Of a DNA stretch of 64,000 bases, positions 3,001 to 12,000 are shown in pieces. Origin of the DNA: Escherichia coli (GTDB lineage: Bacteria; Pseudomonadota; Gammaproteobacteria; Enterobacterales; Enterobacteriaceae); assembly GCF_051903065.1 (NCBI RefSeq), contig NZ_CP178438.1; one strand, 5' to 3'. Made by a program: the position numbers. Numbering within the stretch: the first letter of the stretch is position 1; each line of letters starts with the position of its first letter.

Positions 3001-6000
3001 AATGAAGCTGTACTTTGGATTCTATCTCTTCCGGGCGGTATTGCTCTTGCATGGCAGCCAGTGGTCCTGTTTTCATTACGGCTACAAAAGTAGCGTTAGA
3101 GGTGGTTTTTCAGATCCGCATAGCATAGCCCAAACGTCCGCGTCAAAACAGCCTTTCGCGCACTCGACGTTGAAATGATGCCCGGATTATTCATACATTA
3201 ATTTACAGAGTTTGTGGGCGTATTAGCAAAGCAAGGAACAAAGAACGTCTATTATTATAGTCAGTTAACGACCCGGGAGATGAAACGATGAACAAGGTTG
3301 CTCAATATTACCGTGAACTGGTTGCGTCACTGAGCGAACGCCTGCGCAATGGCGAACGTGATATCGACGCACTGGTGGAACAGGCGCGCGAGCGCGTAAT
3401 AAAAACAGGGGAGTTAACGCGAACCGAGGTCGATGAGCTGACGCGAGCTGTCAGACGTGACCTGGAAGAGTTCGCCATGAGCTATGAAGAGAGCCTGAAA
3501 GAAGAATCTGACAGCGTCTTTATGCGGGTGATTAAAGAAAGCTTGTGGCAAGAGCTGGCAGACATCACCGATAAAACGCAGCTTGAATGGCGCGAAGTTT
3601 TCCAGGACCTCAATCATCATGGGGTTTATCACAGCGGAGAAGTGGTCGGGCTGGGAAATCTGGTCTGCGAGAAATGTCACTTCCATCTCCCGATCTACAC
3701 ACCGGAAGTGCTGACGCTATGCCCGAAATGTGGTCATGACCAGTTCCAGAGACGCCCGTTTGAGCCGTAATAGTCTGATTTCGCACAGCAATAAAGAGAA
3801 TATGGGCCGAATGAAATTCCCCGGCCCTTGTTTTTATCTCTACAGTAAATCTTCAGTCTCACGAATTTCCTGACTGACATCTCTGGTTCCGGATGACTGA
3901 ACTTTACGATACAGGTCGAGAGCCTGTCGGAGATCGACAGGTCTTCCTTCTCCGTAGTGATACATAATGGCCAGGTTATACCAGGCAGTGGCGTCATTGC
4001 ATTCAGCGGCTTTCGTAAACCATTCAAAGGCAGCCTGATAATCTTTCTCAACGCCTTGTCCGTGTTTATACATATAACCGATGTTGACGTAAGCGCCGAC
4101 GCTCCCCTGAGCGGCAGCCTTCAGATACCAGTACATCGCTTGCTTATAGTCCTGGTCCACCCCTTCGCCAGCGTTATAATCCCATGCAATTTGAAACTGA
4201 GCATGCCGATTACCCTGCTGTGCGCTTTTCAAATACCAGAATGCGGCGAGTGTCTCGTTTTGAGCAACGCCTTTTCCGTCTTCATAAAGATCGGCCAGAT
4301 TGTTTTGCGCGTCACTATGGCCTTGTAATGCAGCTTGTTTGTACCAGAAAAATGCCAGCGTATAGTCTTGTGCGATTCCGTTGCCATTTCTGTACATCCA
4401 CCCAAGATTATTTTGCGCATAAGACATTCCGCTCTCCGCGGCTATCTGATACCAGGCAACCGCTTCTTTATAGTTGGGGTCTTCTCCACGATCCAGTATC
4501 CAGCCAAGGGCGTTGGAAGCGAAAGTATGGCCTTGTAGGGCAGCTTTTTTCAGCCAGAAGATGGCTTGCTCATTATCTTTATGACGGCTTTTATCCTCGG
4601 TATACTTTTGCCCTAAGGAATACTGTGCTTCACAATGACCTTGCTCAGCGGCCAGCTTCAGCCAGTAAAAGGCCTTTTCGTCGTCCGGAGAGTCAATTGC
4701 GCTATCGCGATTATAATAAAACCCAACAATATATTGAGCCTCACTATCGCCTTGTTCAGCACGTTCGATAATCTCATCTATTGACAAATTATCGCAGCAA
4801 CTTGACGTAAAAATCATTATCATTTCCTTATGGTTGCAGATAAAGCATATTATATTTTTATGTGTTCCGTTTTTGCGTAAGTCTTATTTTATGCGTATTA
4901 TGTTGTGTCAGAAAAGTATAAATAAATGAGCCTCGTAATGTAGTTTACATTCATTAAATGAATGTTTAAGGATAAATTATATGGACATGGAGTCGCAAAA
5001 AATATTGTTTGCACTTTCCACTCCGATGGAAATACGCAATGAATGCTGTTTACCTTCGCATTCATCCCCCAAAATGTATTTAGGTACATGCTTTTTTGAC
5101 CTTTCTTCCTCCTGGGGAATTGATGACCGTGATGACCTGCTGCGCACAATTCACCGAATGATCGATAACGGTCATGCCGCGCGGTTGGCAGGGTTTTATC
5201 ACCGCTGGTTTCGTTATTCTCCATGTGAATGGCGTGACTATCTTGCTGAATTAAATGAGCAAGGTCAGGCTTATGCGCAATTTGTCGCCAGCACAGCCGA
5301 ATGCTGTGGTGAGGGAGGAATTAAAGCATGGGATTATGTCCGGATGGGTTTTTTAAGTCGAATGGGCGTACTTAATAACTGGTTGAGTGAAGAAGAAAGT
5401 CTATGGATCCAGTCGCGTATTCATCTACGGGCTCTACGTTATTATAGTAACTGGCGGCAATACTTTGCCGGTTATACCTTTGGTCGGCAATATTGGCAGT
5501 CTCCCGAAGATGATAATCTGCCTTTATTACGTGAATTCTTAGCGCGTAAAGAATACGACGATTCCGGCAATGATATGTTTTATCAATTATTTGCCAGTGA
5601 CGATGCGTATTACCCTACCTTGTCCTGGCAACCATTGGCTTACTATTCTGCATGCCCGGAAACGCTTAAGGATATGAGCGACCTATGAAAAATTGCTGGA
5701 AGATCCTCAACATAGAGGAAACGACTGACGTCGATATTATCCGCCGCGCTTATCTGGCGCTGTTACCGTCCTTTCATCCAGAAACCGATCCGCAGGGTTT
5801 TAAACAACTTCGTCAGGCGTATGAGGAGGCGCTACGGATTGCGCAGTCGCCTGCTAAATCTGTTTGGCAACCAGAAGAATATGAGGTAGCAGAACATGAA
5901 ATTCTGCTCGCCTTTCGCGCGTTACTTGCCTCTGATAGCGAACGTTTTCTGCCCTCCGCCTGGCAGCGATTCATTCAGCAATTAAATTATTGCTCGATGG

Positions 6001-9000: not shown

Positions 9001-12000
9001 TATCCCATTGCGTTGCAGAACCAGACTGTTGAATATTACTTCGCGCTGGAACGTTGCTGTCGTTACCATCCTGACTATGTCACTGCGTTTTTGGCGATGG
9101 CAGGTCCGTGGTTAATTCCTGATGATGCGAAGTTGCATCGCAAACTGTTGCGCTGGTACAGCTCGGTGCAAACAGGTATGGCGGAACTCATTCCTGTTGC
9201 CCAACAGTGGCAAACGGAAGAACCAGAAAGCGAAGATGCCCGGTATTACCAGTGTGCACAACGTTTGTACTGCGGCGAGGGGGAAAGCCTGCTTGCCGAT
9301 CTCTGCGCGTACTGGGGAAGTTACCCATCTACACAAGCCGATAATTTGTTGTTGCAGTGGAGCGCACAACATTGCCCGGATTATTTCGCGTTATTAGTGA
9401 TGGTTATCGAAGCGCGGAGCATGGTAGATGCGCAAGGTAAACCGTTGAAATATGTTCCTGGTGAGAGCGCCCGGACGCGTCTGTTATGGGCGGAAATTTT
9501 ACATAGCGGAAAACTATCGCCGTTAGGTCAATCGTTTATTGAGTCGCTATTCTTCAAACGCAAAGCATGGGCGTGGTGGAAATCGAGAGTCGGTAGCGAG
9601 ACAGAAGAAGATTCACCGTTACTGGATTTGTATCGGGTAGCGGAACAGGTAGTACTTGAAGCGTTTCCGAAACAAGAGATGCTGGCCCGTCTTAATACAA
9701 GGCTGGAAGGCGGAGATGCTCATCCATTAGAGGCCATTATCACCCGGATGCTGTTGACGAAAGTAAAACTCGAGCCGGAGGATGAAGATGTCGATGAGCC
9801 AACACCTGAAAACCATGAAGAAAAAAATGATGAGGATGAAAAACCACAGAGCATTACCAGCATTATCAAAATCAGCTTAACGGTGCTGGTGATAGGTTAT
9901 GCTCTCGGCAAAATCGCGATGTTGTTTAGTTGACGATGTGTTTTTTGCGCCGATGCCGGATGCAGCATTTACGCCGCATCCGGCAGCCGTGATTATGGGA
10001 TCTCAATGGCTAAATAAACGCTCGCCCGCCGCCTGACCTCATCGACGCGGGCCATATCGTTTGACTGCAGCGCCGCATCAAAATCGGTGATCACCCGGCC
10101 AATCTCTTCTCGCTCGTCACCCAGCGCCCGCGCCCACAACTCTTCCAGTTTGGCCTTAAAGGTGCGGTTGATGAGCATATCGCGCGGATAAATTTTCAAT
10201 GCGGATAACCGCGTCCGACTCTCTTCAATCTGCTGCGCGCTCAATGTTACCGGGCTGTGGTTAATCACTCTGGACTTAACGCTGCCGTCTTCCAGAAGCA
10301 CGTCAACTTCAAGCAAACCGTTGATATCATAACTAAAGCGAATATCAATCGACTGATAAGCCCCGGTTCTCTTCAACGGCACATCGAAGGATTCCACCAG
10401 AATGTTGTTTTTAACTTTGTGGTTTTCTCCCTGATAGACGTTAACCGTAATAGAATCCTGTTCCGGGTGCATGGTTGAATAAGTTTCTACACGCGACACG
10501 GGCACAGTGGTGTTTCGTTCAATAATCGGCGAGAAAATGCCGGAAACGCCCTGGCGGTTAACCTCAACGCCCAACGAGTAAGGGCAAATATCAGTGAGGA
10601 TCACTTCTTCAATATCTTCACTGCGTAAGCGGCAGGCTGCCTGGATTGCTGCGCCCAGCGCGACAATGGTGCTCGGATCGTAACTTTGATACGGTAATTT
10701 GCCAAACAGACGCACGGCGATTCGCTGCACCAGCGGCATTTGTGACGCGCCGCCAACCAGCACCAGACTGTCGATTTGACTCGGCTTCAGACGCGCATCG
10801 CGCAACGCCTGTTCAATCGGCACTCGCAAGCGATTGAGCAGCGGCAACCACAAATCTTCCAGTTCGTTCTCGTAAAATTCGCATTCCCGCGTTTCATCCT
10901 GGTACTGCCAGCGAATGTGCATTGGCGATTGATTGCTACATTTTGCCGCTTCCACACAGGCATACAAGGCTGCCAGTTCACTCTCGTTAAGCGTGGTCCT
11001 GGCGACATCCGCGCGTTTTAAAACCTCATCGACCAGCATATGGGTAAAATCTTCGCCACCGAGGAAGTTGTCGCCAGCGGAGGCGTGAACTTCAATCACC
11101 GGCGTGGCGTACTCAAGCACCGTAACGTCAAACGTGCCGCCACCGAGATCAAACACCAGCGAACGGGTATTTTGTTGGGTATGCAGGCCATACGCCATCG
11201 CAGCTGCTGTGGGTTCATTAATTAAGCGTACCGCATTTAAACCGGCTAACTCCGCTGCTAAACGGGTATGCTTGCGTTGTTCATCGCTGAAATAAGCCGG
11301 AACAGAGATCACCACATCTTTAATCGGACGTTGCAGAAATTCTTCGGCATCTTCTTTTAATGAGCGTAATACCAAAGAGGACAGTTCTGGCGCGTTAAAT
11401 GTGTCGCTGCCTAACTGCCAGTTGGTATTACTGCCCATTGCACGTTTAAATAACGCTGCCGTTTTATCCGGATGCGAAGTACGCCGTGATACAGCCGGTT
11501 TTCCGACTAAAATATGATTATTTTCATCCATGCTAATTATGGATGGTGTTAAATATTTACCGAACTTATTTGGAATTAATTGCGCGGCACCGTCTTTCCA
11601 GACGGCAATTAAACTATTGGTAGTACCGAGATCGATACCAATGGCGAGTTCTGCATTATCCATTGCATTTATATCTTGAAAAAAAAAAGAGATAAACAGA
11701 TTAAGACCACCCAGGTAACGCGTGGTGATCTTAATCAATGACGTGTGTTAAGCGTAAAATTTCAGACGATCAGCCAGTAAATCAACAAAGCCCTGACGAT
11801 CAACATCGACCATTACAGTGGCATTCGGTTTATTGCCAGTCAGATAATAATAATCAACAACCGTCATCCCCTGGGTATATTTCCCCTGTGTTTCCACGCC
11901 AACCCAGCGCTCAACAGTGGTAAACAACTCGGGTTTCAACAGCCAGGCGATGGTGCATGGGTCATGCAGCGGTGCGCCGACAAAGCCCCATTTTTCGTCT

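Follow-up and report, generated by a model that had tools for sequence, protein, structure and literature searches.

A conserved set of three genes, which encode a DUF1266 protein, a translationally coupled J-protein of the HPE type and HscC, a specialised Hsp70, was identified in a 64,000-nucleotide stretch of Escherichia coli DNA (RefSeq assembly GCF_051903065.1, contig NZ_CP178438.1), hereafter the window. In the window the DUF1266/J-protein pair is present twice, as ybeR-djlB and ybeU-djlC, and the second copy runs towards a convergent hscC. We favour, with moderate confidence, a reading in which the three components form a dedicated membrane-tethered Hsp70 machine, with DUF1266 partnering the J-protein either as an adaptor or as a dedicated client. 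An earlier note, made from the sequence alone, had described the same region as a tandem duplication of three-gene units that each began with a Sel1-repeat gene. The gene coordinates, strands and both ATGA overlaps that it listed were reproduced by open reading frame (ORF) calls and junction sequences, and the composition of the conserved unit was found to differ from the one it proposed.

Conservation of the DUF1266, J-protein and HscC genes

Gene neighbourhoods were scanned with an aligned set of YbeU-subfamily sequences as query, each species being represented by a single genome, and the 78 loci returned were from Escherichia, Klebsiella, Rahnella, Erwinia, Pectobacterium, Gilliamella, approximately 55 Pseudomonas species, Marinobacter and Bowmanella. 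Neighbours were identified by matching the window proteins against six-frame ORFs of these loci. At 74 of the 78, the DUF1266 gene was followed immediately downstream by a DjlB/DjlC-like J-protein gene and then by an HscC-type Hsp70 gene, an arrangement covering eight genera (Escherichia, Klebsiella, Rahnella, Erwinia, Pectobacterium, Gilliamella, Pseudomonas and Marinobacter); the remaining four loci end at contig ends. All-against-all clustering of the loci yielded these three as the sole ORF families common across genera. The hscC gene is convergent to the DUF1266/J-protein pair in all loci but those of Marinobacter, and the two genes of the pair overlap as ATGA at all junctions found, except for three Pectobacterium junctions that read TAATG. 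The order of the three genes was kept at a DUF1266 identity of 29-31%, in a Vibrionaceae-like chromosome and a metagenome, and an HPE J-domain ORF was also found 3' of a DUF1266 relative at 25% identity. The pair is thus conserved as a coupled unit far outside close relatives, always accompanied by an HscC-type Hsp70, and the outcome that the earlier note had named as fatal to its system interpretation, a pair restricted to close relatives, was not observed. The triplet of Sel1, DUF1266 and J-protein genes that it had put forward did not emerge from the neighbourhood analysis, which gave DUF1266, J-protein and HscC instead.

The duplicated unit consists of two genes

Both ybeR (4981-5688, plus strand) and ybeU (7778-8485, plus strand) encode proteins of 235 aa that match Pfam DUF1266, and they are followed by djlB (5685-7112, plus strand) and djlC (8482-9933, plus strand), respectively. 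The ybeR/djlB and ybeU/djlC junctions both read CTATGAAAA, in which the stop and start codons overlap as ATGA. As had been noted before, the copies are paralogous yet diverged, with 59% amino acid identity between YbeR and YbeU (E 4e-104) and 50% between DjlB and DjlC (E 3e-160), both far beyond chance. Colinear nucleotide similarity, as detected by blastn, is confined to positions 5008-6683 (plus strand), covering most of ybeR and the 5' two-thirds of djlB, and 7805-9480 (plus strand), covering ybeU and the 5' two-thirds of djlC, with 64% identity over 1708 columns (E 4e-70). The Sel1 genes ybeQ and ybeT, which had been counted as the third member of each copy, do not share in this colinearity. 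Their nucleotide matches are of 45-74 nt, at the level of the repeat, and all fall on one stretch of ybeT; the two proteins differ in length and align as Sel1 repeats alone, in many alternative registers.

The Salmonella locus, lying between ybeL and rihA, encodes a ybeQ orthologue, a DUF1266 protein, a J-protein (477 aa), a second DUF1266 protein, a second J-protein (487 aa) and a convergent HscC. Its two DUF1266/J-protein pairs are separated by 12 nt, ybeT being absent from this position, and are marginally nearer to YbeR/DjlB and YbeU/DjlC, respectively. Since Salmonella has both pairs, each nearer its own E. coli counterpart, the two-gene duplication predates the Escherichia/Salmonella split. 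Klebsiella spallanzanii (L007) has a single DUF1266/J-protein pair and no Sel1 gene. The duplicated unit is therefore composed of two genes, DUF1266 and the HPE J-protein. From the same comparison, ybeQ was already in place before the Escherichia/Salmonella split, and ybeT is an insertion made later, in Escherichia.

In Escherichia sp. MOD1-EC7003 (L004:3648-5003), two extra DjlB/DjlC-like ORFs (E 4e-20 and 3e-16) lie between ybeL and ybeQ, which suggests remnants of a third J-protein copy in that lineage.

The J-proteins are membrane-anchored and shortened in E. coli

In DjlB (475 aa) the HPE J-domain is followed by a central domain that is helical and by a C-terminus that is hydrophobic, and DjlC (483 aa) is a tail-anchored HPE J-protein. 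The Pfam DnaJ match for the window J-proteins is weak (6.9e-4), and their translations carry HPE in place of HPD in the J-domain, a feature invariant in 21 of 21 aligned J-proteins of the family. In both proteins the C-terminal 20-25 residues are hydrophobic. A structural model of DjlC consists of the J-domain and TPR-like helical repeats, its central domain resembling TPR or alpha-solenoid scaffolds.

Outside Escherichia, Salmonella and Klebsiella the J-proteins are mostly of 890-970 aa, with some of about 560 aa. The long form has an HPE J-domain, approximately 300 residues homologous to DjlB/DjlC 3-350, a long helical middle region and, by Pfam, a multi-pass membrane domain, DUF805, at the C-terminus. 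Of this form the enteric proteins have retained the N-terminal half, and one hydrophobic tail closes them. When the first 350 aa of a long J-protein were used in a word-indexed search, 15 matches were obtained, all in close Pseudomonas. These comparisons show the E. coli J-proteins to be shortened, duplicated derivatives of an ancestral form of about 900 aa. The middle region was lost more than once, because intermediate J-proteins of some Pseudomonas also lack it. These, of about 560-590 aa (L069:10687-12381, L038:9807-11585 and P0273-P0277), have the DjlB-like N-terminal domain without the long middle, and DUF805 is retained in at least L069/P0273 and P0274-P0277. The membrane-proximal, dedicated chaperone system envisaged in the earlier note fits the C-terminal anchor of the J-proteins and DUF805 in the long forms.

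NCBIfam was found to hold no model for DUF1266 or for the J-proteins, and a newer Pfam release already contains a family DjlB_C_2nd (PF27158).

The DUF1266 proteins YbeR and YbeU

YbeR and YbeU both match Pfam DUF1266 (PF06889), with a best independent E value of 2.8e-46. The family is small, an exhaustive profile search with YbeU giving 367 representative clusters of relatives at E<=1e-3. Within the J-linked family the conserved residues are W45, G64-H65, W117-D118, R121, E139, W158, G168 and W172, and an N-terminal L-S-x-P motif is invariant. The identical W/H/D/R/E residues are kept in distant multidomain homologues that have no J-protein partner. Because these residues are conserved in homologues lacking a J-domain, DUF1266 would possess an intrinsic binding or catalytic site older than its recruitment into the HscC system. 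The fold of DUF1266 is confidently predicted to be all-alpha and has no solved relative, and a search of PDB sequences with YbeU and DjlC returned chance matches only (E>0.2). In the 41 multidomain DUF1266 proteins (including P0172 and P0173), DUF1266 is C-terminal and its partners are Cu_amine_oxidN1, SLH, BspA-type LRR, TPR and Peptidase_M54, which are cell-surface-type, extracellular-type or TPR modules without a link to Hsp70.

The putative association of YbeU with DjlC was modelled by joining YbeU to DjlC(1-455) through a (G4S)6 linker, the paired alignment supplied having 21 rows. The model had a predicted local distance difference test (pLDDT) score of 83.3 and a predicted template modelling (pTM) score of 0.77 over 720 residues, about 70 of them disordered. 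This pTM is higher than we would expect for independently floating domains, and lends indirect support to a docking of YbeU on DjlC. AFDB contains one E. coli entry of 627 aa named 'Hsc56 co-chaperone', which was not used as evidence because it probably arose as a fusion by frameshift.

HscC and its published biochemistry

The window hscC (9993-11663, minus strand) encodes a specialised Hsp70 of 556 aa, and a RefSeq gene with the annotation 'molecular chaperone HscC' matches it at 100% identity. The protein matches Pfam HSP70 (2.8e-98), while with the NCBIfam models for DnaK and HscA it reaches 379-386 bits where the cut-offs are 620-822. According to Kluck et al. 2002, as related by Mayer 2021 (PMC8215388), the HscC ATPase is stimulated by DjlC, while DnaJ, CbpA and HscB do not stimulate it, and mutants of the HscC system are also sensitive to ultraviolet light. 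The same review reports that DjlC is tail-anchored, that hscC and djlB djlC mutants are both Cd2+ sensitive, and that positive charge dominates the peptide preference of HscC (Mayer 2021, PMC8215388). It assumes DjlB as an HscC partner by homology. Thus the statement that DjlB and DjlC are reported partners of HscC holds for DjlC, for which ATPase stimulation is published, while for DjlB it is an assumption.

Distribution, selection and regulation of the island in E. coli

Across bases 3700-11800 the window is 100% identical to E. coli NZ_AP045789 and 95-99% identical to most other complete genomes, whose annotation here reads ybeL, ybeQ, ybeR, djlB, ybeT, ybeU, djlC, hscC and rihA. In the window the island is flanked by leuS-ybeL and rihA-gltL. 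We surveyed 5426 E. coli genomes, scoring presence at a coverage of at least 80%, and found the whole island in 3691, hscC in 4376, ybeU-djlC in 4268 and ybeR-djlB in 3707.

The ratios of nonsynonymous to synonymous substitution (dN/dS), calculated for the window against three other Escherichia species, were 0.03 for hscC, 0.04-0.07 for ybeR, 0.07-0.11 for ybeU, 0.11-0.15 for djlB and djlC, 0.08-0.14 for ybeQ and 0.08-0.12 for ybeT, with 0.004-0.04 for the flanking ybeL and rihA. Purifying selection thus acts on all seven island genes. In a comparison of E. coli with Salmonella, identity was 83% for HscC, 62-65% for the DUF1266 proteins and 49-55% for the J-proteins, so that evolution is much faster in the targeting modules than in the motor.

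The island has a lower GC content than its flanks. It belongs to the H-NS regulon, and overexpression of SlyA raised ybeT 4.1-fold and ybeU-djlC 2.8-fold (PMC5797941). In an hns mutant of strain 042 grown at 25 C, a DUF1266 gene was up 308-fold (PMC7582179). A table from genomic SELEX (systematic evolution of ligands by exponential enrichment) lists the ybeQ<HNS>ybeR promoter as constitutive sigma-70 with an H-NS site, and ybeR-djlB as an operon (PMC3946193). The island is thus an optional chromosomal island that, from the published data, is silenced by H-NS.

Proposed working of the system

The ancestral core would consist of the DUF1266 protein, the translationally coupled HPE J-protein and HscC. 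The J-protein would be held in the inner membrane, by its C-terminal tail in enterics and by the multi-pass DUF805 domain elsewhere, and its J-domain would recruit HscC and trigger the HscC ATPase, as published for DjlC. Its TPR-like helical domain may hold DUF1266, roughly 1:1, and DUF1266 would then select or present a client at the membrane; alternatively, DUF1266 itself may be the dedicated client, much as IscU is presented by HscB to HscA. In the Escherichia/Salmonella lineage, shortening of the J-protein and duplication of the DUF1266/J-protein pair would have given two alternative targeting modules for one HscC. The cytoplasmic Sel1 protein YbeQ and, in Escherichia, YbeT with its N-terminal hydrophobic segment would have been added.

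A number of observations weigh against this reading. DUF1266 proteins at 23-26% identity were found without an adjoining J-protein, although some of the contigs are short and uninformative; because the most distant members do not lie beside J-proteins, the domain has a role that is independent of Hsp70 systems. No natural fusion of DUF1266 to a J-protein or to Hsp70 was found among the 41 multidomain DUF1266 proteins, and the putative DUF1266:J-protein contact draws on the pTM of a fusion model, an indirect measure. Approximately 1017 of the 5426 E. coli genomes (about 19%) gave no match to hscC and are without the island through loss; deletion also produces variants with a single unit, and some strains have pseudogenes bearing frameshifts and internal stops. 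In laboratory E. coli the island proteins are expressed below the proteomic detection limit (Mayer 2021, PMC8215388), and reviews up to 2026 list HscC with DjlB and DjlC only, naming no client.

The dedicated machine leaves a choice between adaptor and client, and a possible but distinctly less probable alternative is that DUF1266 is solely a dedicated client, bound by the J-protein and remodelled by HscC, which would switch its intrinsic ligand-binding or enzymatic activity at the membrane. Specialised Hsp70, J-protein and client are encoded together in HscA/HscB/IscU, a precedent that favours this explanation, as do the 1:1 translational coupling of DUF1266 with the J-protein and the persistence of the W/H/D/R/E residues in distant homologues without a J-protein, which points to an intrinsic site. 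The invariant L-S-x-P motif could also be an Hsp70 binding site; however, the motif is not basic, and HscC prefers peptides with positive charge (PMC8215388). The presence of two DUF1266 paralogues with a J-protein apiece would suit alternative adaptors just as well, and client and adaptor are equally compatible with the data. A related, similarly tentative proposal is that DUF1266 may be a new all-alpha ligand-binding or catalytic domain, its W/H/D/R/E site shared with cell-surface homologues in Firmicutes, and that in gamma-proteobacteria HscC and its membrane J-protein are dedicated to switching or delivering it at the inner membrane. If so, the triad would be a membrane sensor or effector of a new type, gated by a chaperone and perhaps active in envelope stress or in conflict between genomes.

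We regard it as unlikely that there is no integrated system beyond HscC/DjlC, with the DUF1266 and Sel1 genes as historical passengers and the E. coli island as a decaying remnant. Expression below the detection limit in laboratory culture (PMC8215388), the frequent loss of the whole island or of one unit, and the frameshifts and internal stops of some strains speak for this explanation. The triad is decaying in Pectobacterium sp. PL152 (L043:10705-15271), which has a truncated ORF for the J-protein and an hscC broken up into three. However, the order of the DUF1266, J-protein and HscC genes and the 4-nt overlap are kept across a range that takes in Escherichia, Pseudomonas and Marinobacter and reaches as low as 29-31% identity (25% for the DUF1266/J-protein pair). 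Moreover, all genes are under purifying selection, and both pairs have been retained since before Escherichia and Salmonella diverged.

Least probable of all, and rather improbable in our estimate, is that the island serves conflict or defence, whether phage or other invaders are the target, with HscC and the membrane J-protein as sensor or effector: its accessory status in E. coli (in an island-free example genome ybeL lies directly beside rihA at a clean junction), its H-NS silencing, SlyA inducibility and GC below that of the flanks, like horizontally acquired DNA, its co-chaperone genes evolving several times faster than hscC (49-65% versus 83% identity, dN/dS 3-4 times higher) and its plasmid-borne occurrence in Erwinia persicina are outweighed by the search results and by the genomic setting. 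PADLOC gave nothing significant for the seven proteins (only non-significant matches of Sel1 to PtuA, with 0 passing stretches), PHROG had no match for DUF1266 or the J-proteins and only generic Sel1 and Hsp70 families, and in Pfam scans of the island and of the long J-proteins no effector domain, such as a nuclease, protease or NADase, came to light. Housekeeping genes flank the island, and the ybeL/rihA site is shared by Escherichia and Salmonella, with ybeL also flanking the Klebsiella unit; the shared site therefore indicates old vertical inheritance with losses. No further conserved neighbour was found in the loci, and no literature link. A phage-borne module was also looked for in phage and plasmid collections and rejected, the matches being to Erwinia persicina plasmids, to E. 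coli chromosomes that carry a wrong label and to two very small 'phage' records without annotation. The phage-related role entertained in the earlier note thus found no support in PADLOC, PHROG, the phage records, where the module is essentially absent, or the literature.

Relation to known systems

The HscC-DjlC (DjlB) pair, a divergent Hsp70 with a tail-anchored HPE J-protein, is encoded by the very genes considered here. In contrast to the published two-component system, DUF1266 is found as a conserved third component, translationally coupled across gamma-proteobacteria, and the ancestral J-protein is of about 900 aa with a DUF805 membrane domain. HscA-HscB-IscU resembles the dedicated machine in having a specialised Hsp70 with a dedicated J-protein and in needing no nucleotide-exchange factor; the non-J helical domain of its J-protein binds one specific partner from the same gene cluster, as DjlC may do with DUF1266. 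However, DUF1266 has no sequence or fold relationship with IscU, nor has the DjlC central domain with the HscB C-domain, and HscA-HscB-IscU is a cytosolic housekeeping system whereas the HscC system is membrane-anchored, optional and H-NS-silenced. The comparison is accordingly an analogy of how the system might work and not one of membership. DjlA is likewise an inner-membrane J-protein that localises Hsp70 activity to the membrane, but its anchor is N-terminal, its HPD J-domain is C-terminal, it works with DnaK and it has no coupled DUF1266 gene. Within the Pfam DUF1266 family, coupling to a J-protein and HscC is seen only in the gamma-proteobacterial subfamily.

The gene names, and since 2002 the pairing of HscC with DjlC, are already known, and the occurrence of YbeQ, YbeR, DjlB, YbeU and DjlC as a single cassette in LT2 and K-12 was remarked upon in 2019 (PMC6935094). 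The claim that the module is undescribed therefore stands for the role of DUF1266 only. In the literature searched, which did not extend to the J-protein survey of Barriot et al. 2020, 'DUF1266' was met in one line of an expression table (PMC7582179), and Hsp70 and J-protein reviews of 2021 and 2026 do not mention it. What appears to be new is DUF1266 as a core partner of the HscC system, together with the longer ancestral J-protein.

HscC is the one bacterial Hsp70 class whose cellular job is unexplained more than 20 years after its biochemical description, and DUF1266 offers a specific, cheap-to-test candidate for its missing adaptor or client. For DUF1266, a DUF family without a solved fold relative, the triad supplies a first functional context. 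Because the E. coli proteins are shortened and duplicated, better models may be found in Pseudomonas or Erwinia. How Hsp70 systems are seen in general is unchanged, since a specialised Hsp70 with a dedicated J-protein and partner is known from HscA/HscB/IscU.

Sel1 genes and other features of the locus

The two Sel1 genes lie on the minus strand. YbeQ (3840-4823; ORF call, Pfam) is a 327-aa protein with eight Sel1 repeats at E<=4e-4 and no N-terminal hydrophobic segment, and its gene is divergent from ybeR. YbeT (7122-7676) is a Sel1-repeat protein of 184 aa, also matched by Pfam, with an N-terminal hydrophobic segment that may be a signal or an anchor. Within 10 kb of the triad, Sel1 genes were present only in the Escherichia loci of the 78-locus scan and in Salmonella, whose ybeQ orthologue is full-length, 50% identical and in the same position. 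YbeQ and YbeT are thus lineage-specific accessories, YbeQ confined to Escherichia and Salmonella and YbeT to Escherichia, and not part of a fixed architecture as previously proposed. The divergent ybeQ/ybeR intergenic region (4824-4980) is AT-rich, with a GC fraction of 0.39 over 4501-5000.

The second copy ends convergent with hscC, as had been stated before, djlC and hscC being separated by a spacer of 59 bp (9934-9992). A repetitive extragenic palindromic (REP)-like palindrome, GCCGGATGC-12 nt-GCATCCGGC, was read from the sequence of this spacer and is probably a shared terminator or mRNA stabiliser. It was not flagged by a consensus terminator scan; the promoter and terminator consensus scan gave fewer sites than in shuffled sequence and was uninformative. 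The longest hscC ORF begins with TTG at 11738 and encodes 581 aa, while the start taken by RefSeq and by the earlier note is the ATG at 11663 (556 aa); the upstream extension, 11664-11738, is probably not translated.

Erwinia persicina plasmids of 130-165 kb (H48-H51) carry a DUF1266 gene; no other true occurrence on a plasmid was found. The E. persicina loci of the genome scan (L010 and L018) have the whole triad. Eleven of the 12 matching plasmid records were typed as non-mobilizable. At a contig end labelled Paenibacillus sp. USDA918EY (L008), a YbeU fragment 99% identical to E. coli was found, most likely the result of contamination or misassembly rather than a Firmicute copy. In Salmonella (L089), a sugar-acid cluster of four genes, which includes a sigma-54 activator and is missing from the E. 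coli window, lies between leuS and ybeL (2798-7276), and an extra ORF of 412 aa without a Pfam or NCBIfam match lies between hscC and rihA (15082-16320).

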